A DNA stretch of 24,594 nt from an uncultured Candidatus Saccharibacteria bacterium (GCA_964432405.1 CAYSNH010000002.1:1-24594); one strand, 5' to 3'; shown: positions 1,601-19,021, counted from the first letter of the stretch. Notes: generated from the sequence alone by a model not told the origin. Program-made: numbers and translations.

Positions 1601-2323
1601 TTATAATTCTAACTCGGCTTCTATGAACTTATCAAGCTTTCCCTCTAAAACATCCTCGGGTTGATTGACGGTAACGCCAGTTCGATGATCTTTGACTTTT
1701 TTATAGGGGTGGAGGACGTAAGAGCGAATCTGATTTCCCCACTCAGGGGTTATTTTGGTTCGTAAATTACCAAGCTCCTTTTCTTGCTTCTCCTCCATTA
1801 ACTTAAATAAGCGAGCTTTTAGGAGGTTAAGGGCTTTTTCTTTATTTTGCATTTGAGATCTTTCTGCTTGAGAGGCAGCGCTAAGACCGGTTGGTAGATG
1901 GACTATCCGAACAGCGGTTTCACGCTTATTAACGTTCTGACCACCCGGACCACTAGAGCGAGACATCTCCACCTTTAAATCGTCCTCGGGTATTTGTATT
2001 TGACCAGCTTCTAATTCAGGCAGTTCTGGCACTATCTCCACCAAAGCAAAAGAGGTGTGGCGTAGTTTTTTAGAAGAAAAAGGAGAGATCCTAACAAGAC
2101 GATGAACACCAACTTCATTTTTAAGATTGCCGTAAGCATAGTCTCCTTTTATCTCTAGTTGTAAATCATCAGTAACAACAACCTTCCAGCCCCTTTTTTG
2201 AGCATATTTGTGGTACATATTGAATAGCATATGCGACCAATCTTTAGCATCATCACCACCAGCACCAGCATAGATAGAGAGATGAGCATTATTACGATCG
2301 TATTTTTTATCTAATGATTTCAT
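1601..2323 (-). CDS. prfB: Peptide chain release factor 2, N-terminally minimal (domains 2-4 only, 240 aa)
   Basis: SPF stop-codon recognition tripeptide (RISPFSS), GGQ motif (SGPGGQNVN), and RF2-like GVHRLVR and IRSYVLHPY blocks. Aligns to E. coli RF2 only from about residue 105 onward. The ATG is 1 nt from the tRNA-Thr 3' end. Confidence 0.85.
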   Translation of the reverse strand: MKSLDKKYDRNNAHLSIYAGAGGDDAKDWSHMLFNMYHKYAQKRGWKVVVTDDLQLEIKGDYAYGNLKNEVGVHRLVRISPFSSKKLRHTSFALVEIVPELPELEAGQIQIPEDDLKVEMSRSSGPGGQNVNKRETAVRIVHLPTGLSAASQAERSQMQNKEKALNLLKARLFKLMEEKQEKELGNLRTKITPEWGNQIRSYVLHPYKKVKDHRTGVTVNQPEDVLEGKLDKFIEAELEL

Positions 2324-2324
2324 G

Positions 2325-2396
2325 AGCCGGAGGTGAGATTCGAACTCACGACCTCTACTTTACGAAAGTATTGCTCTGCCCCTGAGCTACACCGGC
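2325..2396 (-). tRNA. tRNA-Thr (anticodon CGU), CCA not encoded
   Basis: Hand-folded cloverleaf on the reverse strand: acceptor GCCGGTG/CTCCGGC (one U-U), D arm GCTC-AGGGGCA-GAGC, anticodon arm ATACT-TTCGTAA-AGTAG, T arm GTGAG-TTCGAAT-CTCAC, discriminator T. 72 nt. Confidence 0.85.
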
Positions 2397-2511: not shown

Positions 2512-3054
2512 ATGTCAAAAGAAATGCCAAAAAATGCTTTCCAGAGCGCAAAGTTTATATTACAAAAAGAGAACTCCAGTCTGGCAAATAGCATTTACAG
2601 AATGTTGTTAGAAAATGATTTTGTTCGAGAAGAGAAACTTCAACCATCTTTTGTTGGTTTCCTTAGCTTAATAAAACTGATTAAGGAGGGATTATCTATT
2701 TCAAAGAAGCGATTTGGTAGGAGAGGAATACCTCAAAACCTCACAATCGTTACCGCTGACTGCAACAAACCTCCAGAAAGGTTTTGTTATCAAGCAGAGA
2801 ATGACGAGTTGATTATAGGGATGCTGTTCTTAGCACGCAACGTTGTTAAGCTAGAAAAGAACCAAAAGGTGAAGATGTTAAATCAAAGCCTGACTATCTT
2901 TCAGGCAGTGAAATTGATAACTGTTCAGGAGTGCTACCATCGATATCTAATCAGATCATCAGGGAGAAGATTAGACCAAAAAACCAGAGAGGCTGTGAAA
3001 GTAGAAGCTCAACAAAAAGTTTTGGAGATGATCAAGGGTGAGTCTATCGTTTAA
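2512..3054 (+). CDS. Hypothetical protein, 180 aa, no recognisable domain
   Basis: ORF with its own promoter, canonical SD and terminator. Lone plus-strand gene in a minus-strand block. No motif recognised by eye. Confidence 0.6.
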   Translation: MSKEMPKNAFQSAKFILQKENSSLANSIYRMLLENDFVREEKLQPSFVGFLSLIKLIKEGLSISKKRFGRRGIPQNLTIVTADCNKPPERFCYQAENDELIIGMLFLARNVVKLEKNQKVKMLNQSLTIFQAVKLITVQECYHRYLIRSSGRRLDQKTREAVKVEAQQKVLEMIKGESIV

Positions 3055-3064
3055 GCTTGCTCAG

Positions 3065-3088
3065 GCCGCTAAATAAGCGGCTTTTTTA
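3065..3088 (+). terminator. Rho-independent terminator
   Basis: GCCGCT (3065..3070), loop AAATA, AGCGGC (3076..3081), then a T-run at 3082..3087. The T-run overlaps the stop codon of the convergent minus-strand gene. Confidence 0.6.
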
Positions 3089-3658
3089 TTTTCTTTTAAT
3101 TCCCGACTCGGTCCATGAAAATTCTTTGGTAAAAATATGAACCTTGGCTTCTTTCTTTTGATTCTTTAACCAACTATTAAAATCTCTATTTTCTGACGAG
3201 AATCTTTCTTCAATCAACTCCCTTTCAGCCTGTGGAATGAGAATGACGTCTTTAAAATCATTAAAATCTAGATTAAACAAAGCACTGGCGGCGGCTTTTA
3301 ACTTAGGATCTTGAAGGTATTTTTTAACTTTAGCTGCTACTAATTCTTGCTTCTTGTCCCCCATTAGCTCATTGATGTTATCGGCGATAATAATTTTTTC
3401 AATTACTTTATCTAAAGTAGCTTGCTTTATATCCTTTTTTATTTTTTTAATCTGCTTCTTACTAACCTCCTCTCCTTTATATGTATGAAGTATTTGGCTG
3501 TAGTATTTAAGAGCTGAGTTATATTCTTTTTCCACCTCACTCCCCCAAACAAGCTGAGAATTAACTAAAGCAATTGGATACCATCCAGAACGAATCATGT
3601 TTAACGCCCCAAAGCCTAGAAAGACTATGGCTATTAAGATAATGTATAATTTTTTCAT
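3086..3658 (-). CDS. Membrane-anchored SurA-N-terminal/PpiD-like chaperone-like protein (tentative)
   Basis: N-terminal TM (LYIILIAIVFLGFGAL), then IALVNSQLVWGSEVEKEY and a helical Lys-rich region resembling SurA_N-type domains. No PPIase motif seen. Its start overlaps the upstream stop by 4 nt (ATGA). Confidence 0.4.
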   Translation of the reverse strand: MKKLYIILIAIVFLGFGALNMIRSGWYPIALVNSQLVWGSEVEKEYNSALKYYSQILHTYKGEEVSKKQIKKIKKDIKQATLDKVIEKIIIADNINELMGDKKQELVAAKVKKYLQDPKLKAAASALFNLDFNDFKDVILIPQAERELIEERFSSENRDFNSWLKNQKKEAKVHIFTKEFSWTESGIKRK

Positions 3659-3927
3659 TGAGATTCTGGAACAACTATAATGAGTTTTTCGCCTGGTTTA
3701 ACATAATTAAACCGCGATCGAAGTTCTTTTTCAAGATTGTCTGCGTTTTTAAGGTATTTTATTTCAGCCAATAATTCACCATTTTCATTAAGAAGGGGTT
3801 GTAACTCACTTCCTATTTTATCAAGATCGGTTTGTAGGGCGGTTCTTTGTTTACTGAGAGAGTAAATTTGAAAGCCTAAGCCAGCTATACAAATGATTAA
3901 TATAATACCAAATAAGGTTTTCATCAA
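3655..3927 (-). CDS. Septum formation initiator family protein (FtsB/DivIC-like)
   Basis: 90 aa: N-terminal TM, leucine-zipper-like coiled coil, C-terminal LEKELRSRFNYVKPGEKLIIV typical of the FtsB/DivIC family. ORF-track start is TTG at 3927; an ATG follows at 3924. Stop is TGA at 3655..3657. Confidence 0.65.
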   Translation of the reverse strand: MMKTLFGIILIICIAGLGFQIYSLSKQRTALQTDLDKIGSELQPLLNENGELLAEIKYLKNADNLEKELRSRFNYVKPGEKLIIVVPESQ

Positions 3928-5406
3928 TTAGAACCCTCCAGGACTAGTGGGAATAGGTATCACTCCTCCAGGACCAGGACTAGTGGGAATAGGTATCACT
4001 CCAGGTGTAGGAGGAATGGTAGGTGCTCCTGGTGATACAGGTCCAGGAGTAGAAGGAAAGGTTGGAGAAGTAGGAAAATTTGGAATGGTGGGTGTTATAG
4101 GAGTTGCGCCAGGTGTTACTGGCCCTCCTGGATTAGTTCCTGGAGTTTGCGGATTTCCTATTATTGGCGGTGTTTTCGGTTCTGTGATTTGAACATCGCT
4201 AGGAGGATTAGGCTCTGGAGTAGCTGGGCCAGCACTACCATATATGCCAAAATTCCACTTTAATGGATCTTGGGGAATATAAACATTATCAGGAACCATT
4301 GAAACTATAAGGCACTTGGGATCAGGTTGGTTTTTAAGTTTTAGGCACATTCCTGTGAGCGGCATACCTATCACGTGATTAGTGAAATTTTGATGAGGAA
4401 TAGCCATCTCATTAAAATATTTTGGGTCTATCACAGGAAGTTTCGTAGGACCCTTGTCTATCTGCTCAACTATAAAAGTATCTGAATTATTACCAGTCAA
4501 ATTAGGTCTATCTATTCGGGGCCCCGCTCCAATAACAACGGGTCCATTTTCTATATAATCTGATATATTAGCAAAAGCTCCATCTTCTCCATAAAAATCA
4601 CTAATAGGCATGACTACTCCTTGCGTACTGTCATTTATTTTGGTTAACGAATCTCTATAAGCTTGCTCTAAACGCGGATCACCTCTCCAACTTCTTGGCA
4701 TGGGCAACCAAGGAAATATTTCTCCTGGTTTAAGCCATCTACTATCACCAATAGTTATTGAATGATAATAATCATCTTTTATAGTGTACATTTCTTTATA
4801 CAGATCACTATCTGGAGTGGTTCCAACAAATATACCTACAGTTTTACCATCAGGACCCCTAACTGGAGCTCCTGGAAGTAAATTGACTATAAGATCATTG
4901 GGGAAAACAAACTGGCCAACTTTTGGATCATATTTTAAGCCAGTTAAAACTGGTTTACCATCCGCACCTATGTATGGAATGGTGTATATAATAGTATTGC
5001 CATTTTTATCAAGTCCAGTTTTAGATGGATCATTTCCTGGATTGAGAAAGGTTGGAATGTCGTCTAGCTTAGGATCCATAATAGTATATATGTATCTAAA
5101 TCCGGTGGGACCATTAGGACCAACAAGAGGTTTTGTTACCACACCTACAGATCCAGTAGTGAGGTCTTTGATACTACCAACCGGATAAACAAAAGGCCTT
5201 CCTTTAATGTGCTGATCAGGATAATGATAAAGAACCGGCCTAAAGTGACCGGGAGTAATTTCAACCTGAACATAAACACCTCCACTAATATCGATGCCCT
5301 GAGCTCGAACTCGTTTTTCTTCAGGTAATTTTGGATAGATTATTAATACAAAGAGTATTAATGAGATATAAAAGACTAATTTTTTATTTTTATTTTTATT
5401 TTTCAT
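3928..5406 (-). CDS. Membrane-anchored or secreted protein of unknown function with a Pro/Thr/Gly-rich C-terminal tail (492 aa)
   Basis: MKNKNKNKK plus hydrophobic helix at the N-terminus, about 400 aa of unrecognisable globular sequence, then a roughly 90-aa P/T/G low-complexity tail ending in a duplicated GVIPIPTSPG unit. Confidence 0.7.
   Translation of the reverse strand: MKNKNKNKKLVFYISLILFVLIIYPKLPEEKRVRAQGIDISGGVYVQVEITPGHFRPVLYHYPDQHIKGRPFVYPVGSIKDLTTGSVGVVTKPLVGPNGPTGFRYIYTIMDPKLDDIPTFLNPGNDPSKTGLDKNGNTIIYTIPYIGADGKPVLTGLKYDPKVGQFVFPNDLIVNLLPGAPVRGPDGKTVGIFVGTTPDSDLYKEMYTIKDDYYHSITIGDSRWLKPGEIFPWLPMPRSWRGDPRLEQAYRDSLTKINDSTQGVVMPISDFYGEDGAFANISDYIENGPVVIGAGPRIDRPNLTGNNSDTFIVEQIDKGPTKLPVIDPKYFNEMAIPHQNFTNHVIGMPLTGMCLKLKNQPDPKCLIVSMVPDNVYIPQDPLKWNFGIYGSAGPATPEPNPPSDVQITEPKTPPIIGNPQTPGTNPGGPVTPGATPITPTIPNFPTSPTFPSTPGPVSPGAPTIPPTPGVIPIPTSPGPGGVIPIPTSPGGF
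3938..4002. repeat. Perfect 29-bp direct repeat with 36-bp period inside the C-terminal tail coding region
   Basis: ccaggactagtgggaataggtatcactcc occurs at 3938..3966 and again at 3974..4002. It encodes the duplicated 12-aa GVIPIPTSPGPG unit. Confidence 0.9.
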
Positions 5407-5418
5407 AAATATAATTTA

Positions 5419-6447
5419 CTACTTAGGGAATTCAAATGGCTTGGTTGGGTCTGAATATATGGTTCCCAGATCCTTTTTGCCTACTGGCAAAGGAGGTCTT
5501 GGGTTGGGAGGTTTTGGCCTAGGAGATGCCTGAGATTGATTTAATCTTTTTTCATAATCTGCTTTAATTTTTTGAGCTATTTTTAAAGCTTTATCTAGCT
5601 CTCCTAATGGAGTGAATGTCCTAATTGGTACCTGTCTAACAAAAGGAAAGGGGTCAAATACACTTCTATATCTTCCCGTAAAATGACCTGGATAATCATA
5701 AACATTAAAGTAATCTTCATAATCTGCTCCAAGATATTTCTTGAAATGACCTCTTAAAGTTAAGCCTTCTGCAGTTCTATGATTGGGATCTAAAAAAATA
5801 TTTCCTTTGTTTTTTACTGGACTAGGTCGGGGCGTTACTACGGGAGGTTTAACTGGCTTCCATCCACCATCATCAAGAATTATTATATCAGGCTTAGGCT
5901 TAGGCTTAGGGGTTGGCTTAGGGGTTGGTTTAGGGGCTGGTTTATTTTGATCAAGATAGCCTTGAATGATTTCTGCAGGTGTCCTTTCATCAGCAGGTTG
6001 TCCCATATTAATAATAACAGATGGATCTGTTTTTTCCAGAAATACAACCTCTATATTTTGACCATAATATGTTCCAGTTAGTGTTCCATCCGGCTCTTTA
6101 GCTGAATAATAGTTTTTAATGAGATCTGCTATAAATTTTTTATCATCCTTTTTTTCCTCCGATCGAATACTCACCCATACTTCATGATTTTTATCAAACT
6201 CACCATTTAGTATAAGATGAGCTTTTAATATGTAGTAATCAATGCCGCTTTTGATGGGGCCCAACCCCCCAGGAGCTTCTTTGTATTTATATATTATATC
6301 AAAATTATATTTAATTATACCTACTTCAAAAACTCCTTTCTCTTCAGCTTTAATAAAAGGACTTTCTAATTTAAAAAGAAAAACCATCACTAAAATAGCT
6401 ATAACCAGCCAAATTATCTTATCTATTTTTTTTGCTCTAGTAGTCAT
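5419..6447 (-). CDS. Membrane-anchored protein of unknown function with a central (K/T/A)P repeat linker (342 aa)
   Basis: N-terminal basic stretch plus TM (IIWLVIAILVMVFLF), two unrecognisable domains separated by KPAPKPTPKPTPKPKPKP, and a Pro-rich C-terminus. Confidence 0.7.
   Translation of the reverse strand: MTTRAKKIDKIIWLVIAILVMVFLFKLESPFIKAEEKGVFEVGIIKYNFDIIYKYKEAPGGLGPIKSGIDYYILKAHLILNGEFDKNHEVWVSIRSEEKKDDKKFIADLIKNYYSAKEPDGTLTGTYYGQNIEVVFLEKTDPSVIINMGQPADERTPAEIIQGYLDQNKPAPKPTPKPTPKPKPKPDIIILDDGGWKPVKPPVVTPRPSPVKNKGNIFLDPNHRTAEGLTLRGHFKKYLGADYEDYFNVYDYPGHFTGRYRSVFDPFPFVRQVPIRTFTPLGELDKALKIAQKIKADYEKRLNQSQASPRPKPPNPRPPLPVGKKDLGTIYSDPTKPFEFPK
5891..5940. repeat. Hexanucleotide tandem array (GGCTTA/GGGGTT units) encoding the Lys/Thr-Pro linker
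   Basis: ggctta ggctta ggctta ggggtt ggctta ggggtt ggttta ggggct, read directly from the sequence. Confidence 0.85.
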
Positions 6448-6454
6448 TTATATT

Positions 6455-7555
6455 TTATTTTTGAGCATCTATTAAAGCCTGTCTCGCTTCTTCTTGTTGT
6501 CTTAGTAAAGTCTTCCATCCTGGTTTATCTAAAAACTTATTTAATGAGGTACTAGAGCAACCTATATTTCTTGGTGGCTTAGTTGCCGGATCTACAGAAT
6601 TACAAACGCCAAAAACAGAAATCACGCCGGTTCTAGAGTCAACGTTATATATCCCACCGCCCGATCTGCCTCCTTCTACTTCAAGATTATTTCTAGGATC
6701 AATAAAAATAAGTTCTCCTGATGGACCAATAAAGTTACTCTCAGTAACTACGCAACTAGTTTGAGGAGTAGGAATTTGACCAGGTTGAGGAAAATAGGCA
6801 GGTAATCCACCATGAGGACAGCCTACTTGAAAGACTTTATTGCCTTTTTCAGGCGGGGTTGAAGAAATAATGACTGAGGGCAATTCTGATGCCGCAGGTA
6901 TGGAGACAATTGCTAAATCAGGCGCACTATCCCATTGATTAACTATTCCTGTTACCGTTTTGATAATCTTTCCATTTATATCAAAAATCTCAATTTTAAC
7001 TTTTCCATCACTATCATCTCTAATAACGTGCCAATTAGTGATAATAGCCTCTCTTCTTCTCCCTTTTTTATCAATATACTCACCAATTGAAAATCCACTA
7101 CCTTTTCCCATGCCTTGTGGATTACTGGTTGTAATTCTAACATTAGCTAGTTTAGCATTCTTTATCTGATCTTCCATAGAAGGAATGCTTATGGGAGGCT
7201 CTATTTCTGGATAGTCATCAGCACTAATATCAATTCCTTCGTTCCTTCGAAGATCTTCTTCGAGTCGTTGCCTACCCCTTTCATTATCCCGTGGATCGAA
7301 ATTAGTAATAATTGGATCTTCATTAATTAACTTGCCATCTTTCTCTATCGTAATGACATAAAGAGTCATACCATCCTGAACTCTTTTTTCAATATCTATA
7401 TCAATGCCTGGCTGTTCAGCAAAAATTACTGGCTGATCAATAACACCAGAATCCTGACTTACCGTTACCACACCTAGCAACAAGGTAAAAACAGCAATTA
7501 AAAGCCACCAGAGCGAGTTTTCTTTAAATTTTCTAAATAAAGGGTTGTTGATCAT
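6455..7555 (-). CDS. Membrane-anchored trypsin-fold (PA clan, S1-like) serine protease
   Basis: N-terminal TM (LWWLLIAVFTLLLGVVTV). Candidate catalytic triad in canonical order: His in ITNWHVIRD, Asp in APDLAIVSI, Ser in GGRSGGGIY. No PDZ domain seen. Confidence 0.65.
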   Translation of the reverse strand: MINNPLFRKFKENSLWWLLIAVFTLLLGVVTVSQDSGVIDQPVIFAEQPGIDIDIEKRVQDGMTLYVITIEKDGKLINEDPIITNFDPRDNERGRQRLEEDLRRNEGIDISADDYPEIEPPISIPSMEDQIKNAKLANVRITTSNPQGMGKGSGFSIGEYIDKKGRRREAIITNWHVIRDDSDGKVKIEIFDINGKIIKTVTGIVNQWDSAPDLAIVSIPAASELPSVIISSTPPEKGNKVFQVGCPHGGLPAYFPQPGQIPTPQTSCVVTESNFIGPSGELIFIDPRNNLEVEGGRSGGGIYNVDSRTGVISVFGVCNSVDPATKPPRNIGCSSTSLNKFLDKPGWKTLLRQQEEARQALIDAQK

Positions 7556-8286
7556 TATTTAATAACTAAATTACCATTAATCACTTGGACTCTAATTTTA
7601 GCTGGGACAGCATTTCCTTTCCAACCTATTTTCCGTGCTTGTTTAATAGTAAGATAATAACCCGGTTGTCCAAAACTACTTCGACAGTGCGGACACCATT
7701 GAGGCTCAGTTATCTTAACTTCCACAAAAGTATTTGGTTTTTGTAATACTTTTTCTAATTCTTCTAAGGTAACGTAATATAATTTATTCTTTCCGAAAGT
7801 TCCCAAAAAAGTACTAAAGTATCCTGAATATTTTGGATTTGGATGAAGCTTAAAGTCCTTGAATGATTTCTCAAAATCGTGATACTGAGAAACTTGGGGA
7901 GGGGTAGACGTTGTTGGAGGCTCAGGCTGTTCGTGATCTTGCTCTCTTAGCTTCTCTCTTAGGTTCTCAATAGCTTCTTCAACTCCATTACTAGGACCAA
8001 TAATGATGTTTCTAGTAGGTTTAGAGGGTCTAGTTGTAGGAGGAGTAACTGCTTCTTCATCAATAGGAGGGACTGATGAATCTCCTGACTGAGCACTAAT
8101 CTCTGCTTGAATAACTGCTATTTCTTGATTGAGCTCTTTAATTTCTTTGGTTACTTTGTTTAAGCGCTCAATATAGTTTTTTAAAGTATCTACTGGATCT
8201 TTTCCCTGAACATATCCAATAGTAGGGGCTAGTAGAATGCCTGCTACAAGAATAACTCCTATTGTTTTGAAGATTCCTTTGTGCAT
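7555..8286 (-). CDS. Secreted or anchored coiled-coil, Pro-rich protein with a C-terminal WCPHC motif (243 aa)
   Basis: Signal-like N-terminus (IGVILVAGILLAPTIGYVQG), coiled coil, PPTTRPSKP and EPPTTSTPP linkers, and a C-terminal roughly 70 aa containing WCPHC (7684..7698). Start is 1 nt after the upstream stop; its stop overlaps the next ATG by 1 nt. Confidence 0.7.
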   Translation of the reverse strand: MHKGIFKTIGVILVAGILLAPTIGYVQGKDPVDTLKNYIERLNKVTKEIKELNQEIAVIQAEISAQSGDSSVPPIDEEAVTPPTTRPSKPTRNIIIGPSNGVEEAIENLREKLREQDHEQPEPPTTSTPPQVSQYHDFEKSFKDFKLHPNPKYSGYFSTFLGTFGKNKLYYVTLEELEKVLQKPNTFVEVKITEPQWCPHCRSSFGQPGYYLTIKQARKIGWKGNAVPAKIRVQVINGNLVIK

Positions 8287-8287
8287 A

Positions 8288-9757
8288 TTATTTTTTCTTT
8301 AAACTATCAAGCTCTTTTTTCAATTCGGCTATTTGTTCTAAGTAAGTGTCAAGATCAGGTTTGCCATTAGGATCCTTATATACGTCTTGCCAATTTTTAC
8401 CTAAGTAAGTGATGAGGTCCGTCAATATCTTTATTTTTTCTGCTACTTTAGCATCCCTCTCTTTGATTTTATCAGCTAATTTTTTTTCAAGATCTTCTTT
8501 TTCATCAAAAGGCGACTGAATTTCTAAATCCTCATATCCTCCAGGCAAGCCCTCTCTTATCTCATCTTCAATAATCTTAAAATCATTATTTTTTTGGTAT
8601 TCAAGAAGAGCTTCCAACGAAATTTTAATTTCTATTTCTGAACATCCCGATTCTGTGCAAACTTGAATCTTAATTACACAATCAGTTTTTCCTTTTTTAT
8701 CAAAGCAAAATGTGCCAATAATATTTCCCTCTTCATCAACTGGTATTTTTATCTCACCGTCTGAAACCGCAAATGGATCAGTTGTTGGGGGTTCAGCTCC
8801 ATCTGATTGTGCGTCATCCATAGAATCTTGTCTCTCTTGTCTCTGTTGTATGAGATCTCTTAATTGTTGAATTCTTTCATCCCTTGCAGCATTTTCTTTT
8901 CTAAGCCTTTCTATCAGTGCAGCTGCCTCAGCTTCTGTTTTTGGATCTGAGCCTTTGGAAGGAGGGTTGTTCATTCTTTGAGCTAAAAGACTTATTAAGC
9001 TAATAGATGTTCTTTTTTTACCAATACCAAGCTCTTTTTCTAATCTTCTTTCTTCAGCTTCTTTTTCCATTGCCTCCCTCTCTAATTTATTAATTTCCTG
9101 TATTTGAGCCTTGGTAGGAGGACGTACAGGAGGTGTTATAGGCACAATACCATTTTGATAAAAAGCAACTTTATTCATTATTGCCGCAAGCGCTTTCTTA
9201 GCGCTTTCCACCTCTTTTTTTGAGCCTGGGTCCGTTGAAAAAGCTACAATAAATATAGGCTTATTAAATCCATGATATATAGTATTTTGCGCTCCTGTAT
9301 TTGGATTTCTAACTATTTCCGTGTGACCTAAAAGATTTCTTATTTTTATAGCATCCTGTCGAATACCAACTATATGATTTTTTATTCTATTATTATCAAA
9401 TTTTATTTTGCCTTCTTTCATATCTTTCATATCTTTTATCAAGGCATTTACTTTCTTATTTTCTGTCAGTAGAACTCTTTTAATTTCTTCTATATTTTTA
9501 ATAGCCGCCCTCCTTATATCGTTGCCAAGTAAAGAGGCTCTGATATCTGCATTGAGCTTTTTTTGTTTTTCGACCATAAGATCAAAGTTAACAATAATCA
9601 TTTGATTAACTTCCCGCAGAACCTTATCTAAGTCTTCCTTATTTGGCTGCCCAACAGCGCCAGTAAAAACATTACCTTGCTGACCAAATCCTATAATCAA
9701 CAATAATAAAAGCGCTCCTAATACAATAAGACCTTTTTTTCTACTTTTAGCTTTCAT
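8288..9757 (-). CDS. Membrane-anchored coiled-coil protein of unknown function (489 aa), first gene of the operon
   Basis: MKAKSRKKGLIVLGALLLLLIIGF anchor, long charged coiled-coil regions, and a four-Cys cluster (CFDKKGKTDCVIKIQVCTESGC). No family recognised. Confidence 0.7.
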   Translation of the reverse strand: MKAKSRKKGLIVLGALLLLLIIGFGQQGNVFTGAVGQPNKEDLDKVLREVNQMIIVNFDLMVEKQKKLNADIRASLLGNDIRRAAIKNIEEIKRVLLTENKKVNALIKDMKDMKEGKIKFDNNRIKNHIVGIRQDAIKIRNLLGHTEIVRNPNTGAQNTIYHGFNKPIFIVAFSTDPGSKKEVESAKKALAAIMNKVAFYQNGIVPITPPVRPPTKAQIQEINKLEREAMEKEAEERRLEKELGIGKKRTSISLISLLAQRMNNPPSKGSDPKTEAEAAALIERLRKENAARDERIQQLRDLIQQRQERQDSMDDAQSDGAEPPTTDPFAVSDGEIKIPVDEEGNIIGTFCFDKKGKTDCVIKIQVCTESGCSEIEIKISLEALLEYQKNNDFKIIEDEIREGLPGGYEDLEIQSPFDEKEDLEKKLADKIKERDAKVAEKIKILTDLITYLGKNWQDVYKDPNGKPDLDTYLEQIAELKKELDSLKKK

Positions 9758-9760
9758 GTA

Positions 9761-9789
9761 TTGACAAAATGTTAATTTTATTATATAGT
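9761..9789 (+). promoter_or_regulatory. Near-consensus sigma-70 promoter for the small plus-strand ORF
   Basis: TTGACA (9761..9766), 17-nt spacer, TATAGT (9784..9789). Confidence 0.55.
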
Positions 9790-9828: not shown

Positions 9829-9942
9829 ATGATGAAAAATAAAATCATTTACTTCCTTCTGGGAGTGGCAACTACTCTCGCGTGCATTCGAGGCTATCAG
9901 CTTTTCTGGATTTGGTACTGGAAAACTTACCCTTTAATGTAA
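9829..9942 (+). CDS. Small hydrophobic membrane peptide, 37 aa (MMKNKIIYFLLGVATTLACIRGYQLFWIWYWKTYPLM)
   Basis: Below the ORF-track size cutoff. AGGAG at 9821..9825, tandem ATGs at 9829 and 9832, one predicted TM, Trp/Tyr-rich C-terminus, TAA at 9940..9942. Flanked by its own promoter and terminator. Confidence 0.5.
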   Translation: MMKNKIIYFLLGVATTLACIRGYQLFWIWYWKTYPLM

Positions 9943-9949
9943 CGCTCAT

Positions 9950-9978
9950 CCAACCTGTAACTGCAGGTTGGTTTTTTT
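9950..9978 (+). terminator. Rho-independent terminator of the small ORF
   Basis: CCAACCTG (9950..9957), 6-nt loop, CAGGTTGG (9964..9971), then T7 (9972..9978). No U-tract in the minus-strand orientation. Confidence 0.65.
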
Positions 9979-10030: not shown

Positions 10031-11800
10031 TTACTTCTTCAATAACTCTTTAAAAATAGAGGCAGGGATCTGAACCTGAGTCTTGTCAGCTCTCTCCTGC
10101 AAACGAGCCTTACCCTTCTGTTGTTTTTTCCATAATTTCATCTTTCTAGTCCGGTCACCACCATAGAGGTAGCCGGTAACATCCTTACGAAACGCCGGAA
10201 TGGTTTCTCGAGCGATAATCTGACCATGCGCTTTGGCTTGTAGGGCCTGTTTAAACTGCTGACGAGGAAGAAGCTCCTTAAGTTTTTCCACTGAAGCTCT
10301 AGCCTCTCGATCCACCTTATCCTTAGGGAGAATGCGGGTTAACCCTGGAACCACAAAGCCCGCTACTAATATTTCTAGCTTTTCTAACTCATTAGCCTGA
10401 TAACCAATTAATTCATAACTAAGAGAAGCGTAACCCTCTGATAAGGATTTCAATTTATCATCAAAGTCACTAATCAAGTCGGCTAAAGGCAATTTAGCTT
10501 TTATTAACATGCGATTACCTAAATTCTCAGTCTCAAAATCACTCAGACGGAAAACGTCGGTCAAAGACATAACACCTCCTAGATATTCAGCAGGAGCAAT
10601 GATTTCTAGCTGAACCATCGGTTCCTGGGCCTCTACATAGTCATCAGGGAAATCTTTAGGGCTATTAATATCTTGCATGCCTGATCTGGTCTTAACCTTA
10701 TACTTCACCGAAGGAAAACTCTGGACGGTTTCTAAATCAAACTCTTTAGCTAATCTTTCAGCGATAATCTCAAAGTGAAGCTGACCAAGAAAACCACTCT
10801 GAAAACCTCTGCCTAGTAATTCACTAGAGTCTGGCTCAAAAACCAAAGAGGAGTCGTTAAGCTGTAATTTAGCTAAAGCCTGCTTCAAATTATCAAAATC
10901 ATTATTATCTTGAGGATAAAAAGAAACGAAGACCACGGGTTGTGGCTCCTGATAATCAGCTAAAGCAGCAGAAGGAGTATCTTTTAGGGTGATTGTGTCA
11001 CCAATCTTGATCTGATTAGGATCTTTGATGCCTGTAGCGATATAACCTATCTCGCCATTAGCCAGTTGCTCACTAGCAGTTAACTTGGGCTGGAAATATC
11101 CTAACTCCTTAATCTTGCTTGAGGATTTAGTAGCGACAAAGTGAATATTTTTAAAAGGATTGAGCTGACCTGAAAAAACTCTAATAAAAGCGATGACTCC
11201 TTTGTGGTCATCATAATATGAGTCAAAGATAAGGGCTTGATGCTTCTCATCACCAGCTTGAGGAGCGGGAATGTCTTTAATAACATGCTCCAACAAATCC
11301 TCCACCCCCTCACCCGTCTTACCTGAAACCTTGATGATATCGCTAGAATCAACTGCTAATAACTCTGCCAGTGTATTAATAGTGTCTTCTAGATGAGCGG
11401 GTTTGAGATCAACCTTGGTAACTGCGCCGATAATCTTGAGACCAGCCTTTTTAGCAGCTTCAAAGTTAGCTAAAGTCTGAGCCTGAATACCTTGAGCGGC
11501 ATCGACTAATAAGATGGCGCCCTCAACAGCAGCTAGAGCCCGAGAGACTTCGTATGAAAAATCTGAGTGACCTGGGGTATCGATTAGGTTTAAGATGTGG
11601 TCCTTATAGGTCATGCGTACCGGAGCCATTTTGATAGTGATACCTCTTTCTCTCTCTGACTCCAACTGATCGAGATATTGGGGTTGTAGCTGGCGTTTAG
11701 AGACGGTTGAGGTAGCTTCAAGCAGCCGATCGGCCAAGGTCGACTTCCCATGATCAATGTGGGCGATAATAACAAAATTTCTAATTTTTTTTGTATCCAT
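10031..11800 (-). CDS. lepA: Translation elongation factor 4 (LepA)
   Basis: G1 AHIDHGKST, G3 DTPGH, TKVD G4 variant, and a LepA-specific C-terminus (YGGDRTRKMKLWKKQQKGKARL). The ORF track starts at TTG 11806. The ATG at 11800 (MDTKKIRNFVIIAHIDHGKS) matches LepA N-termini better. Confidence 0.9.
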   Translation of the reverse strand: MDTKKIRNFVIIAHIDHGKSTLADRLLEATSTVSKRQLQPQYLDQLESERERGITIKMAPVRMTYKDHILNLIDTPGHSDFSYEVSRALAAVEGAILLVDAAQGIQAQTLANFEAAKKAGLKIIGAVTKVDLKPAHLEDTINTLAELLAVDSSDIIKVSGKTGEGVEDLLEHVIKDIPAPQAGDEKHQALIFDSYYDDHKGVIAFIRVFSGQLNPFKNIHFVATKSSSKIKELGYFQPKLTASEQLANGEIGYIATGIKDPNQIKIGDTITLKDTPSAALADYQEPQPVVFVSFYPQDNNDFDNLKQALAKLQLNDSSLVFEPDSSELLGRGFQSGFLGQLHFEIIAERLAKEFDLETVQSFPSVKYKVKTRSGMQDINSPKDFPDDYVEAQEPMVQLEIIAPAEYLGGVMSLTDVFRLSDFETENLGNRMLIKAKLPLADLISDFDDKLKSLSEGYASLSYELIGYQANELEKLEILVAGFVVPGLTRILPKDKVDREARASVEKLKELLPRQQFKQALQAKAHGQIIARETIPAFRKDVTGYLYGGDRTRKMKLWKKQQKGKARLQERADKTQVQIPASIFKELLKK

Positions 11801-11807
11801 AAACAAA

Positions 11808-15749: not shown

Positions 15750-16322
15750 ATGCTTTCATATACAGAATTAAAACCCGGAAGAGCAATCATTGTTGATGGA
15801 CAGCCTTATGAGGTTGTTGATTACTCCTTCTCCAAAATGCAACGTCAAAAGGGTGTGGTGCAATCAAAGATAAGAAACCTGATCAACGGGAAGATTTTGA
15901 GCAGGAGCATTCATTCTAATGAGAGTTTTGAAGAAGCTGAGATTAATAAAGTGGATGTTAAATATCTATACAATCATCGTGGTGAATATTGGTTTAGCGA
16001 ATTAGATGATCCTAGTAAACGATTTTCTTTAACAGAAGATATTATTGGTGAGACTGGCCGCTTTCTCAAAGGTAATGCGGTTGTAACGGCTATTATATTT
16101 AAAGAAGATATTATTAATATAAATATTCCTATTAAAATGGATTTAAAAGTTAAAAGCGCCCCACCAAGTGATAAGGGCGATACTGCTACAGGCGGTCGAA
16201 AACCGGTTATTTTAGAGACCGATGCCAAAGTCAATGTCCCTCTTTTTGTTAATACAGGAGATGTGATCCGAGTTAATACTGAAAGTGGTGAGTATGTGGA
16301 GCGAGTAGAGAAAGCTAACTAG
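15750..16322 (+). CDS. efp: Translation elongation factor P
   Basis: Aligns along its full length with EF-P (DGQPYEVVD, KYLYN, KGDTATGGRKP, VPLFVNTGDVIRVNTESGEYVERV). The ORF-track start at 15711 lies inside the upstream terminator, so the ATG at 15750 (MLSYTELKPG) is used. Confidence 0.9.
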   Translation: MLSYTELKPGRAIIVDGQPYEVVDYSFSKMQRQKGVVQSKIRNLINGKILSRSIHSNESFEEAEINKVDVKYLYNHRGEYWFSELDDPSKRFSLTEDIIGETGRFLKGNAVVTAIIFKEDIININIPIKMDLKVKSAPPSDKGDTATGGRKPVILETDAKVNVPLFVNTGDVIRVNTESGEYVERVEKAN

Positions 16323-17803
16323 CTATCCTCCGTCACCTTCTCCTCTGACTCCTCGTTGCTCTTTAAAGCACCTTCTAAGGCGCTCCTTAGGGCGTCGATG
16401 TTAACTTCAGCCTTTTTCTTCTTAGGGTACTGTTTAGGCCTCTCCTGGCTTCTTGGCTTTAGAGCTTCTTTAAGAGATTTTTCTCCTTTACGCCTAGTCT
16501 TTTCTTCAGCTGGACTACCCTCACTCAACCATTCCTTGGCTATTTTTTCTTCTACCTTTTCTTTAGCTACGCTATAACGACTCCGAGTATTTTCGATAAT
16601 AACATCTTTAAAATCTTTAGCTGGCTTAATGTGTGGAGCGATGGTTTTAGCGGCAAATGGTCGTGAAGCAACTCCATCGATCATAAGCTTTATATAAATG
16701 TGATATTTAGAAAGATTAACCAGATCATTAGCCTCGTATTCAGGCAAGAACTCTTTCTCTACAAACTCCGCATCATCAGCTCCAATTCGAAAAATTATCA
16801 TAGTGCCAACGTTACCAAAAATAGCTGAGCGGATAGTACTCTTACCCTCCTCATCTAACTGCCTTAAATACTGATTAGCTAATATTAAGGAAAGGCGATA
16901 TTTTCGAGCTTCAGAAAGAATGTTGGCAAAAGATTCCGTAGCAAAGTTTTGAAACTCATCAACATAAAGATGGAAATCTTTTCTTTCTTTTTCAGGCATA
17001 TCAACTCGAGACATAGCAGCTAACTGCAACTTGGTAATGATCATGGCACCTAACAAAGCAGAATTATCCTCTCCAATTTTTCCTTTGGATAGGTTGACGA
17101 TAAGAATCTTTCGCCCATCCATTATCTCTCTCATATTAATAGATGAATGAGATTGACCTAACATATTACGAACCAAAGGGTTGGAGGTAAGTTGACCAAC
17201 CTTGTTTTGAATAGCAGCGGTAGCTTCTGATTCAAAGCGCTGACTGTATTTAGAAAACTCATCAACCCAGAAACTCTTGATGACTGGGTCTTTTAAGTTA
17301 TCCACAATCTCTTTTCGATATTTAGGATTATTAAGCATTCGTAGAATTCCTAATAAAGTAGTGCCTGGATATTCCAAGAGGGCTAACAAGGTGTTATTCA
17401 AAATATATTTCATCCGCGCTGACCAAACATCAGCCCATATCTTTTCAAAAACTCCCATCATGCTAGAAGCTACCAAATGACGATAATCCTCCCCTACCTC
17501 TTCTAAAGGATTGAAAGCTATTGGAAACTTGGTATCGGAAGGATCTATATAAATAACATCATCCATTCTCTCTTCCGGAATAAAGCTTAAAATCTTTTCT
17601 GCTGAATCACCATGAGGATCGATAAAAGCCAAGCCCTCACCAGCTTGGATATCGTTGATGATCATATTTTCTAGCAACGTACTCTTACCAACCCCAGTTT
17701 TTCCAAGAACATAAATATGCCGACGACGATCATCGGTCTTAATACCAAAGTTTCGAGGCTGATTACGAAAAATAGTTTCGCCTAAAGTAGTAATATTTTC
17801 CAT
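16319..17803 (-). CDS. Type IV coupling protein-like P-loop ATPase (TrwB/TraD/VirD4 nucleotide-binding domain) without a transmembrane segment
   Basis: RRRHIYVLGKTGVGKSTLL (Walker A preceded by RH), then FIDPHGD about 20 aa later as in TrwB, Walker B FHLYVDEFQNF, and RKYRLSLILANQYLRQL (compare the GLQSxSQL region). No N-terminal TM. Charged disordered C-terminal tail. Confidence 0.7.
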   Translation of the reverse strand: MENITTLGETIFRNQPRNFGIKTDDRRRHIYVLGKTGVGKSTLLENMIINDIQAGEGLAFIDPHGDSAEKILSFIPEERMDDVIYIDPSDTKFPIAFNPLEEVGEDYRHLVASSMMGVFEKIWADVWSARMKYILNNTLLALLEYPGTTLLGILRMLNNPKYRKEIVDNLKDPVIKSFWVDEFSKYSQRFESEATAAIQNKVGQLTSNPLVRNMLGQSHSSINMREIMDGRKILIVNLSKGKIGEDNSALLGAMIITKLQLAAMSRVDMPEKERKDFHLYVDEFQNFATESFANILSEARKYRLSLILANQYLRQLDEEGKSTIRSAIFGNVGTMIIFRIGADDAEFVEKEFLPEYEANDLVNLSKYHIYIKLMIDGVASRPFAAKTIAPHIKPAKDFKDVIIENTRSRYSVAKEKVEEKIAKEWLSEGSPAEEKTRRKGEKSLKEALKPRSQERPKQYPKKKKAEVNIDALRSALEGALKSNEESEEKVTEDS

Positions 17804-17818
17804 TATTTTAATTATACA

Positions 17819-19021
17819 TTATTCGGTAGGAAGGTTGCTTGGTGGAGCACCTTTCTTGAACTCAACTGAACGAACATTAGGAGCTCCAACGGTAATACTA
17901 GGAAAGTGATATAAGGTTGCCAGCTCTTCAATGTTAAAGATGGAAAATTTAGGGCTGCTAGAACCGATATAACCCGGGAAGATACGGCTACGATAAGTAT
18001 TATATATACTTCTTTTTTTGTTATAGACCCTTCTCTTTTTGAAAATATCCCTAAAGATGCCCCGAGTGATAGTCATGGTATCTAGATTAGGCATAAAGCT
18101 GTTAAGATTCATCGTGTTTAAATGCTGAAAGGTGCCCATGACAGCTGCAATATGATCTCGACTAAAGTGATCCTTGTGATCAATGAAGACAAAACGAATA
18201 ACGCACTCAAAACCAATCTTAGCCGCCTTATCATCAATGCCAGCTACCACCTCTCGCTCTCCTTTACTTAACGCCACAAAGGAAGCCGACTCCTCTCCTT
18301 TATTTCGACCCATCAACTCATCTCTAACAGCCTCGGCCTTCTTTTTCCAACTGGAATCGGTAGGGCGAACTAGAATCTGAATCCAAATTCTCTCACCTTC
18401 CTTTAGGCGAGACATGGCTTCCATAAGGATAGCGACCGTATCTAATTTCTCCTCTTCACCTCTTGCCTCAGCTTCAAAAGAGGCGTAAGTTCGAAAAGGA
18501 TAGGCGCTGTCTTTAACTAAAACAAACTCGGTGCCAAATAGGTCATAGTTGTCGTTGGGTAAGACCTCAGGTAGATCATCAACGTAGTCATCAACCACCT
18601 CTATCTCAGAATTAGGATATTGAGCATAAATAGCTGACTCTATTAAATTACGAGCCCCTTTATCGATACGAATATAAAAATGAACGCCGCTAGAGTCACC
18701 TACTAATTCAAAAGAGCCCCAGCCCTCTTGCTTACCACCAAAATACTTATCTCTAAATTTAGCTCCAAAAGAATAGGTTTGATTAAATGCAGCAAAAATT
18801 TGCTCCATAGCCTTGGGTGTCTTTTGAATCTCTCTGGGTGGAGTAATTTTCAAAAGTACCCACTCGATACTTTCCAGGTTCTTTTTACGAACATGAAATA
18901 ACCAAGCAGAAAGAAATATTAAAAATAAGATGATTGGAACAAACAACCACCAAGTAACAGCAAAAACATCTCCAATTGACTGAGCAAAATCTGAAACTAT
19001 GTCACCAAATGAAAAAGTCAT
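17819..19021 (-). CDS. Membrane protein of unknown function, operon partner of the coupling-protein-like ATPase (400 aa)
   Basis: N-terminal TM region (VFAVTWWLFVPIILFLIFLSAWLF), then a roughly 340-aa soluble domain with no motif I recognise. Ends 15 nt upstream of the ATPase ATG. Confidence 0.65.
   Translation of the reverse strand: MTFSFGDIVSDFAQSIGDVFAVTWWLFVPIILFLIFLSAWLFHVRKKNLESIEWVLLKITPPREIQKTPKAMEQIFAAFNQTYSFGAKFRDKYFGGKQEGWGSFELVGDSSGVHFYIRIDKGARNLIESAIYAQYPNSEIEVVDDYVDDLPEVLPNDNYDLFGTEFVLVKDSAYPFRTYASFEAEARGEEEKLDTVAILMEAMSRLKEGERIWIQILVRPTDSSWKKKAEAVRDELMGRNKGEESASFVALSKGEREVVAGIDDKAAKIGFECVIRFVFIDHKDHFSRDHIAAVMGTFQHLNTMNLNSFMPNLDTMTITRGIFRDIFKKRRVYNKKRSIYNTYRSRIFPGYIGSSSPKFSIFNIEELATLYHFPSITVGAPNVRSVEFKKGAPPSNLPTE

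Follow-up and report, generated by a model that had tools for sequence, protein, structure and literature searches.

The window analysed here, i.e., the whole stretch of 24,594 nucleotides (nt) from an uncultured Candidatus Saccharibacteria bacterium (GCA_964432405.1, CAYSNH010000002.1:1-24594), carries on its minus strand seven consecutive co-oriented open reading frames (ORFs), G1 to G7, between positions 9757 and 3086 (Table 1), and the present work deals mainly with the first five of them, an island of genes for membrane-anchored proteins located between lepA and the division gene divIC. The contig recurs in several marine metagenome assemblies, and its closest genome records are metagenome-assembled genomes of Patescibacteria. 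From G1 to G7 the intergenic spacing is +1, -1, +7, +12, 0 (or +3 from the ATG at 3924) and -4 nt, and independent gene calls on public contigs with identical proteins yield the same seven genes. The initial annotation, made from the sequence alone, had described a block of seven packed, co-oriented genes, and all of these ORFs were recovered with gaps of -4 to +12 nt. Chance ORFs are excluded, since the seven near-abutting, co-oriented ORFs (90-492 amino acids, aa) are intact in at least seven diverged loci. The wider neighbourhood follows the order AspRS, a 119-aa ORF, NDK, LepA, the G1-G7 block, PrfB, FtsE, FtsX, ComEC, and a protein with an LTD domain. The block is bounded by two hairpins, one of them a candidate bidirectional terminator that would close the operon, and an Rfam scan of the region found nothing besides a tRNA-Thr downstream of the block. 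Literature searches gave no description of the G1-G5 locus, and a paper on type IV secretion systems of Patescibacteria, when compared with the locus, turned out to be unrelated.

Exactly one transmembrane (TM)-like segment on the Kyte-Doolittle scale is present in each of the seven proteins, always at the N-terminus. In the five island proteins this corresponds to the basic stretch plus one hydrophobic helix proposed at the outset, with three to five Lys or Arg residues before the segment in G1, G3, G4, and G5 and only one in G2. The Cys residues number 4, 2, 4, 0, and 2 in G1 to G5, in agreement with the earlier remark that four of the five proteins contain Cys, from two up to a four-Cys cluster. 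Pfam matches above the gathering score were obtained for G6 (DivIC), G7 (SurA_N_3), and G3 (Trypsin_2), the first two being the FtsB/DivIC homologue and the SurA-N-like protein already recognized downstream of the island. G1, G4, and G5 gave no significant match in Pfam, NCBIfam, PHROGs, PADLOC, or PDB sequences. The initial annotation had recognized none of the bodies except that of the middle gene, G3, which falls in Trypsin_2; the tail of G2 shows only a hint of thioredoxin.

Table 1. Features of the island, its backbone neighbours, and its surroundings, in window coordinates.
Feature	Coordinates	Strand	Description
G1 (F1 type), 489 aa	8288..9757	-	N-terminal anchor, coiled coils, 4-Cys mini-domain
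G2 (F2 type), 243 aa	7555..8286	-	conserved anchor and coiled coil, Pro/Thr linker, variable CxxC domain
G3 (F3 type), 366 aa	6455..7555	-	anchor, short beta-rich region, predicted trypsin/HtrA-DegS-like domain, four Cys
G4 (F4 type), 342 aa	5419..6447	-	anchor, middle domain, (PKPT)n linker, C-terminal module
G5 (F5 type), 492 aa	3928..5406	-	anchor, globular region of ~360 aa, two Cys, Pro/Gly/Thr-rich tail
G6, DivIC/FtsB-type, 89-90 aa	3655..3927	-	TTG start (or ATG at 3924)
G7, SurA_N_3-like, membrane-anchored, 190 aa	3086..3658	-	overlaps divIC by 4 nt
Hairpin, GC-rich	3063..3083		in the gap where G7 and ORF 2512-3054 converge; candidate terminator
lepA	10031..11806	-	conserved left flank of the island
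Sigma-70-like promoter site	9761..9789		strong, 11/12 matches; belongs to the 37-aa ORF
Small antisense ORF, 37 aa, hydrophobic (MMKNKIIYFLLGVATTLACIRGYQLFWIWYWKTYPLM)	9829..9942	+	between lepA and G1
Hairpin with T-run	9950..9971		left bound of the G1-G7 block
ORF, 180 aa	2512..3054	+	convergent with G7; no predicted TM segment, no family match
Release-factor-2-like gene, 240 aa, together with tRNA-Thr(CGU)	1601..2396	-	PCRF and RF-1 domains, no N-terminal domain
tRNA-Thr(CGU)	2324..2396		adjoins the release-factor-2-like gene
VirD4/TraG-type coupling-protein homologue, 494 aa, together with a DUF8128 membrane protein	16319..19021	-	T4SS-DNA_transf, TrwB_AAD_bind, TraG-D_C

The last two genes of the block, G6 and G7, are part of a conserved backbone, and G1-G5 are a separate evolutionary unit. 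G6 matches DivIC (PF04977) over residues 11-87 with 38.7 bits against a cut-off of 28.9 (E = 8.7e-10), while the NCBIfam FtsL and FtsB models stay below their cut-offs, and it is a predicted septum-formation initiator of the DivIC/FtsB type. G7 matches SurA_N_3 (E = 3.7e-7, 30.6 bits against 27.2) and, because no peptidyl-prolyl isomerase (rotamase) domain was found in it with Pfam or NCBIfam, it is considered a SurA_N-domain protein and not a full SurA or PrsA. With the G7 family as anchor, 32 related loci were fetched from genome and metagenome collections (numbered with the prefix L; W stands for the window). divIC adjoins surA_N in all of the related loci, at least 25 in number. In eleven of them (L016, L018, L020, L022, L023, L024, L025, L026, L027, L037, and L042), with LepA 52-62% identical, lepA ends 40-200 nt before the start of divIC, with the surA_N-like gene next in line, and in L017 a single unrelated membrane protein of 234 aa is encoded between lepA and divIC. 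Islands of 4.9-8.8 kb of anchored-protein genes are found, in seven lineages, only in the clade with LepA at least 66% identical, which comprises W, L046/47, L004, L005, L032, L049, L051/52, L033, L014, and L015. Since the 11 distant loci keep lepA-divIC-surA_N without such genes, G1-G5 represent a clade-specific insertion. The initial annotation had regarded the seven genes as one apparatus built with a divisome gene, a claim that is not supported by these 11 loci, where divIC and surA_N lie without G1-G5; the cassette is not part of a conserved division module. What is supported is a co-oriented set of five predicted extracytoplasmic proteins, with a trypsin-type protease and a CxxC protein among them. 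The border between both units is also visible in the comparison of W with L004, where the synonymous divergence (dS) changes about ten-fold at the G5/divIC boundary (G5 0.11, divIC 1.0).

Within the island-bearing clade, the order F1-F2-F3-F4-F5-divIC, where F1 to F5 denote the gene types of G1 to G5, recurs with similar lengths in W, L046/47, L005, L049, L051/52, and L032, and approximately in L033. The conservation of neighbourhood asked about in the initial annotation is partial, since the five-gene order recurs in relatives but is absent or replaced in L004 and in the island-less loci. Relatives with scattered or absent genes, which that annotation had named as a refutation, were thus found in part, with L004 and L006 as examples. 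Across the clade, G1-G5 drop to 25-73% identity, whereas the flanks keep 76-94%. In L032, where LepA, PrfB, and FtsE are 91-92% identical to those of the window, G1 reaches 30%, G2 29%, G3 50%, and G5 about 27%, and G4 matches over residues 1-35 only (63%). In L005 (DivIC 94%, G7 82%), the identities are 64% for G1, 55% for G2, 73% for G3, and 31% for G5, and G4 is 97% identical over residues 1-36 and unrelated in the remainder. In L004 (LepA 91.5%), G1 matches partially (28%), no match to G2 was found, and G3 is represented by residues 1-38 only (76%), on a 144-aa protein without protease domain; residues 1-37 of G4 are 59% identical to a separate 202-aa protein, residues 197-342 are 80% identical to a 201-aa protein, and G5 is 81% identical (87% over its core). 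The L004 region encodes, moreover, four additional unrelated anchored proteins. Even the same-species strain L046/47, with flanks 99-100% identical, shows 92-98% identity in G1 (96% to L047), G3, G4, and G5, and 69% in G2, whose differences are all confined to residues 80-226, in the C-terminal ectodomain.

The window is a mosaic of these relatives, with a left part like L005 (G1-G3) and a right part like L004 (G5), and DNA comparison places both breakpoints within G4, at ~6340 (6336-6340) and ~5859. Conservation between W and L005 extends across gene junctions, in segments that comprise the 3' end of G1 with the 5' end of G2, and the 3' end of G2 with G3 and the 5' end of G4. In addition, modules are shared between different proteins. 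A 370-aa protein of L004 and the F2 protein of L049 differ in their bodies but share a glutaredoxin-like CSYC tail at 89% identity, and a DPNHR...YLGADYEDYF module is found in G4 of the window, the 201-aa protein of L004, the F2 protein of L049, and P0018 (in F4- and F2-type genes). In Pfam, none of 19 island proteins taken from L004, L005, L006, L014, and L015 reached a gathering score.

Some loci present a particular architecture. The island of L004 contains at 4715-4762 a duplicate of the last 48 bp at the lepA stop, 96% identical to the window's version and thus nearer than the lepA end of L004 itself, followed by a terminator hairpin (~4800-4830) and a reverse small ORF (4848-5126), so that L004 looks like two island units stacked by recombination. 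The G7 relative P0007 occurs on twenty contigs (the L006-L013 group), none longer than 6 kb, and those examined end 0-1.9 kb upstream of divIC, a pattern of breaks that agrees with assemblies being fragmented by differences in the island between strains. Next to divIC, L006 has a gene that combines an F4-type anchor with a 409-aa body without homology to F5.

Selection acts very differently on the two ends of these proteins. The first 35 residues of F2, F3, and F4 are 83-100% identical between W and L005, L049, or L051, while the rest is 20-71% identical, and the ratio of nonsynonymous to synonymous divergence (dN/dS), calculated pairwise by the Nei-Gojobori method from small counts, is 0.05-0.27 for the pooled anchors. 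Between W and L047, which belong to the same species, dN/dS reaches 1.62 in G1, 0.75 in G3, 1.38 in G4, and 1.84 in G5, compared to 0.05-0.08 in AspRS and LepA. In other pairs, the island genes with dS below 0.5 give 0.65-1.9 and the backbone genes 0.02-0.14, with DivIC and SurA_N at 0.06-0.14. In total, W and L047 differ by 50 nonsynonymous and 10 synonymous changes in the island and by 7 and 20, respectively, in the flanks (Fisher p = 3.6e-7). The contrast of the ectodomains, which evolve at a dN/dS of about 0.8-1.9, with flanks and anchors is robust. Decay is disfavoured, since the ORFs are intact in all lineages and both the four Cys of G1 and the catalytic triad of G3 are kept. Furthermore, dS between W and L004 or L005 is 0.11-0.30 in the island and 0.83-1.44 in the flanks (for L004, a range taken from LepA, DivIC, PrfB, and FtsE), i.e., 3-10 times lower in the island. 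Since island alleles share, accordingly, a more recent ancestor than the genomes surrounding them, they have been exchanged between species. This evolutionary description, which comprises a clade-specific insertion, a kept gene order, mosaicism, purifying selection on the anchors, and sharing of alleles, can be given with high confidence.

Among the island proteins, G3 has a strongly conserved anchor (MINNPLFRKFKENSLWW...). Its Trypsin_2 match (PF13365; E = 1.4e-10, 42.5 bits against a gathering score of 27.6) and the alignment of His176 (TNWHV), Asp213 (PDLA), and Ser298 (GRSGG) with the triad of DegS, which is also its best PDB match, bear out the trypsin-type His/Asp/Ser arrangement noticed earlier in the middle gene. 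The triad is conserved in W, L005, L032, and L033, and G3 is, as judged by these matches, a predicted trypsin-like serine peptidase of the S1/PA clan. Membership in the HtrA/DegP/DegS family (S1C) was rejected, as G3 scores 25.3 bits against a cut-off of 450 with NF041521 and 23.8 against 416 with TIGR02037, and no PDZ domain was matched in it by Pfam. The protease domain is present in W, L046/47, L005, L049, L051/52, L032, and L033, the G3-type genes of L004 and L006 are devoid of it, and no G3-type protease was found in L014 and L015.

In these two last loci, homologous anchored proteins, 37% identical to each other (L014 7086-8315, L015 7504-8577), contain an invariant HEASHGIN...R motif of the HExxH type and end in ...DWT..VLGF. 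No match to them was found in Pfam or PDB, profile searches included, and the motif suggests that they could be novel metallopeptidases occupying the protease slot. Concerning G3 itself, the PADLOC model of LmuA matches it at 2.4e-14 through the protease domain only, while PADLOC gave no match for G1, G2, G4, G5, or ORF 2512-3054. An assignment to Lamassu or to known anti-phage defence was rejected, since the LmuB (SMC-like) and LmuC partners were not found and the LmuA match reflects a shared protease domain.

A second recurring element is the CxxC tail of G2. In the window's protein, the motif CPHC (VEVKITEPQWCPHC) occupies residues 198-201 (nt 7684-7695) and a Val-Pro pair lies at 227-228. 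A C-terminal tail of the form CxxC...[V/I/T]P is present in all seven island types (CPHC in W, CRPC in L005, CPLC in L032, CSYC in L004, and CPPC in L033, L014, and L015). A profile of the tails of L033, L004, L014, and L015 matches S. aureus DsbA, thioredoxins, and glutaredoxins in the PDB with E = 6e-4 to 0.1, nearly all of the 44 listed matches being thioredoxin-fold proteins. The G2 slot across the islands is, on these profile matches, likely to encode a thiol-disulfide oxidoreductase.

The tail of the window's own allele is a more tentative case, in which a profile of the window-type tail found no thioredoxin match in the PDB. The AlphaFold2 model of G2 from a seven-sequence alignment has a predicted local distance difference test score (pLDDT) of 44 and the order beta-[CxxC]alpha-beta-alpha-[VP]beta-beta. 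In this low-confidence model a strand at 187-192 precedes a helix at 199-204, so that the CxxC motif is placed at the N-terminus of the first helix after the first strand, and the Val-Pro pair precedes a strand predicted at 229-236. Nearly all of the top 50 Foldseek matches of this model in the PDB are thioredoxin-fold proteins, with a best E of 0.076 and none of them significant. The modelled tail is, therefore, an unproven candidate for a thioredoxin-like thiol-disulfide oxidoreductase. The possible thiol-oxidoreductase of the initial annotation is supported as a CxxC protein, with a fold that is unproven for this allele. Two weak PHROG matches of G2 fall in its coiled-coil region.

The remaining island proteins, G1, G4, and G5, belong to no known family. 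In G1 the anchor is followed by a long predicted coiled coil, the 4-Cys mini-domain (residues 351-372; nt 8642-8707) with Cys at 351, 360, 367, and 372, and a second coiled coil. Its identity to relatives, 96% in L047 and 64% in L005, falls to 28-30% in L032 and L004; the Cys region is the least conserved part of the protein and, yet, all four Cys are retained. A profile search of the PDB with G1 gave no match. In G4 the middle domain (residues 38-196) is unique, and the following (PKPT)n linker is coded by a tandem repeat with a 12-nt unit (5890-5944, 3.8 copies). Insertions and deletions between the window and L047 map to this linker region. The tail of G5, rich in Pro, Gly, and Thr, extends from residue 394 to the end (nt 4227-3931), where it terminates in PGGF, and contains a tandem repeat with a 36-nt unit (3938-4002, 1.9 copies). 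These linker and tail repeats suggest that stalk length may vary between strains.

The globular region of G5, of about 360 aa, has no detectable relatives beyond the clade. An exhaustive phmmer search of its core against 1.84 billion representative proteins retrieved only G5 itself, a word-indexed search retrieved one relative cluster, and the alignment of the F5 family, used as a profile against the PDB, found no match. Within the clade, G5 is about 31% identical to its counterparts in L005, L049, and L051. AlphaFold2 modelling of the core from a two-sequence alignment reached a pLDDT of 28 and is unusable. The structural comparison by AlphaFold and Foldseek envisaged in the initial annotation covered AlphaFold models of the G5 core and of G2, both of low confidence, and a Foldseek search with G2, whose thioredoxin matches were not significant. 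Readings of the protein ends as type IV pilins or as PGF-CTERM or sortase signals were dropped, as the N-termini do not show the G|F-x-x-x-E motif of type IV pilins, and the PGGF end is not followed by the TM helix of a PGF-CTERM or sortase signal.

The reading that we favour, and regard as reasonably probable, is that G1-G5 form an exposed, exchangeable, and diversifying surface cassette. The genes of five predicted single-pass envelope proteins were inserted, in the same direction, between lepA and an ancestral divIC-surA_N pair. Each protein would hold, by means of an N-terminal cytoplasmic stub and a membrane helix, an ectodomain raised on a stalk that is either a coiled coil or rich in Pro. 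As heads, G1 would carry a Cys-knotted coiled coil, G2 a thiol-disulfide domain of the CxxC type, G3 a DegS/HtrA-like protease devoid of PDZ, and G4 and G5 one domain each of unknown fold. Homologous recombination replaces the ectodomains module by module, and its breakpoints are marked by the flanks and by the conserved 5' ends of the genes; the diversifying selection would come from a variable partner, which could be a host cell, phages, or both. Maturation of the cassette's own disulfide-bearing partners, given the Cys pairs of G1, G3, and G5, might be the task of the CxxC enzyme and the protease, or else these might act on the surface of the partner. The position of the cassette directly next to divIC makes joint expression with the division genes probable; this co-transcription is plausible from the gene arrangement and would be a consequence of the position of the island.

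Several points weigh against this reading. The single dN/dS values above 1 are not individually significant and, because the counts are small, relaxed constraint is not fully separable from positive selection. The coupling of the cassette to divIC, with a 3-nt gap or a 4-nt overlap, is kept wherever an island exists, which leaves room for a functional link to division. In turn, the single transcript is deduced from spacing alone, and the predicted N-terminal helices may either stay in place as anchors or be removed as signal peptides. For the G2 tail of the window, the PDB profile search and the Foldseek E of 0.076 do not establish a thioredoxin fold. The function of the cassette is inferred, with G1, G4, and G5 devoid of detectable homologues and with models of the G5 core and G2 that reach pLDDT values of 28 and 44, respectively. 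Moreover, the phylum is the ground for assuming an episymbiotic lifestyle and a host. The role in attachment or envelope remodelling of an episymbiont proposed in the initial annotation fits an exposed diversifying module and shares this inferred status.

The alternative closest to the initial annotation is a housekeeping envelope-biogenesis or septal apparatus, in which the protease, the oxidoreductase, the SurA_N-like chaperone, and the linker proteins would work together with DivIC. HtrA, PrsA, and Sec cluster at Gram-positive septa and provide an analogy for such a machine, to which the tight coupling to divIC and surA_N wherever an island is present, the DegS/HtrA-like catalytic domain, the CxxC motif of every island, and the SurA_N-like G7 would all be suited. 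However, hypervariability, mosaicism, and dN/dS near 1 disfavour it, and allele replacement in the island stands against the low ratios of DivIC and SurA_N. It is also difficult to reconcile with the 11 related loci that keep lepA-divIC-surA_N without the cassette, with the loci in which the protease domain is missing (L004, L006) or no G3-type protease was found (L014, L015), and with the lack of a PDZ match and the distance of G3 to the HtrA equivalog models; it is, thus, considered unlikely. Slightly less improbable, although still rather doubtful, is a toolkit for attack or foraging tethered to the surface, which is a version of the favoured surface cassette and not exclusive of it. Its enzymes would act on partner proteins, releasing nutrients or breaching the envelope, with G1, G4, and G5 as adhesins or spacers and a variation that tracks host surfaces. 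With their long stalks and Pro-rich linkers, the proteins would present their heads at a distance from the membrane, and enzyme slots recur as the sequences change, with CxxC in all islands, a Ser protease in those of window type, and the HExxH protein in L014 and L015. Nevertheless, the peptidase nature of this last protein, which has no Pfam or PDB match, comes from its motif only, L004 and L006 have no recognizable protease, and there is no known substrate or host.

Two further explanations are very improbable. One is that the island is the remnant of an integrated mobile element or prophage targeting the 3' end of lepA, as its fixed insertion site directly after this gene could indicate, together with the second 48-bp copy of the lepA end inside the island of L004 and the hairpin and reverse small ORF that follow it. 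However, searches of Pfam, NCBIfam, and PHROGs revealed no integrase, transposase, or phage structural genes, the notable PHROG and PADLOC matches being those of the G3 protease domain, besides the two weak PHROG matches of G2. A repeat search found no flanking direct repeats around the window's island, all island genes encode envelope proteins in the orientation of the backbone, and the lepA-end duplicate is better explained by recombination stacking two island units. The other one, equally remote, is that these are lineage-specific genes drifting under relaxed constraint without an important function. Drift could produce whole-gene dN/dS values of about 1 and would agree with the lack of homologues outside the clade, but hardly with five long ORFs (243-547 aa) of an AT-rich genome that remain intact and ordered across at least seven diverged lineages, with purifying selection on the anchors and conservation of the triad, the CxxC motif, and the 4-Cys pattern, or with alleles that are exchanged and retained across species.

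A more far-reaching form of the surface-cassette reading can be put forward tentatively. The cassette might be an undescribed 'plug-in' system of surface identity in marine Patescibacteria, in which the anchors would serve both as membrane sockets and as handles for DNA recombination. If so, ectodomain modules from related species, taken up perhaps via the ComEC channel encoded nearby, would be swapped in, altering host range or allowing escape from phage or host recognition, and their expression would be tied to division by read-through into divIC. To our knowledge, the way in which ultrasmall Patescibacteria recognize and hold their partners is largely unknown beyond type IV pili. The locus is a concrete candidate for such an exposed interface, restricted to one clade, in which the gene order is kept while the outward sequences turn over, and which would be endowed with its own protease and thiol-disulfide enzyme. 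It is also a clean natural example of membrane-anchor sequences being kept and everything outside the membrane being replaced, and it illustrates why regions of this kind fragment in metagenome assemblies and escape homology searches and structure prediction. Its interest lies, thus, in its evolutionary behaviour more than in an assignable biochemistry.

The surroundings of the island present several additional features. The conserved left edge is marked by the small antisense ORF of 37 aa, which is associated with the sigma-70-like promoter site and the hairpin with T-run, is conserved in L004 and L005, and was missed by public gene calls. L004 has an analogous reverse small membrane ORF at this position (92 aa), and L033 has two (201 and 110 aa). 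Beyond the opposite edge, ORF 2512-3054 is hypervariable, with identities of 96% in the same-species strain, 84% in L049, and about 27% in L004, L005, and L032, where the flanks are 82-92% identical; it is absent from the L006-type contigs, and L049 has two diverged copies of it. The release-factor-2-like gene starts on the base after the tRNA-Thr(CGU), and all close relatives have it called in this 240-aa form. The VirD4/TraG-type homologue, at a distance of about 7 kb from the island, adjoins a DUF8128 membrane protein of 400 aa. Orphan VirD4-like genes are reported to be common in Patescibacteria (PMC12102498).

The cassette can be compared with several known systems. G3 shares with HtrA/DegS (S1C) proteins the chymotrypsin-fold catalytic domain, the triad, and a tether that faces outward, and differs from them in having no recognizable PDZ domain. 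With regard to DsbA and other thioredoxin-fold enzymes, it is the sister alleles of the G2 tail that match their profiles, the fold of the window's own tail being unproven. Both kinds of enzyme are tethered to the membrane and face outward. Unlike housekeeping HtrA and DsbA, moreover, the genes of G3 and G2 are hypervariable. Polymorphic toxins (CdiA-CT, Rhs) and the variable lipoprotein loci of Mycoplasma and Borrelia combine a constant N-terminal part with a swappable C-terminal part and form mosaics. The cassette resembles these toxin and variable antigen loci in its constant anchor end, its swappable C-terminal part, and its dN/dS near or above 1. However, Pfam, NCBIfam, PADLOC, and repeat searches revealed in it no toxin domain, adjacent immunity gene, silent cassette archive, or promoter repeats for phase variation. 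A polymorphic toxin system was, therefore, rejected, as every island gene encodes itself an anchored protein, and no toxin domain or small gene of immunity type was found among them.

Two other systems resemble the cassette at the level of the whole locus. In Thermococcales, a hypervariable module centred on an immunoglobulin (Ig)-domain protein has been read as a system of conflict or of self/non-self recognition (PMC8416519). It is similar to the cassette in its lineage-restricted surface or membrane proteins, its fixed locus, and its variable combinations of downstream genes. It differs in being archaeal and based on Ig domains, with no sequence relation to the cassette, which is characterized by a fixed order of five genes, anchors, and protease and CxxC heads. 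In the tandem lipoprotein cluster lpl of S. aureus, gene junctions lie within the unit of evolution (Tsuru and Kobayashi 2008, PMC2568036). This cluster consists of paralogous lipoproteins of a single family, whereas G1-G5 are non-paralogous, have N-termini of bitopic or signal type without a lipobox, and include enzyme domains. It is nevertheless the closest formal analogue of the cassette, since conserved 5' ends and junctions, variable centres, and mosaics generated by recombination are found in both.

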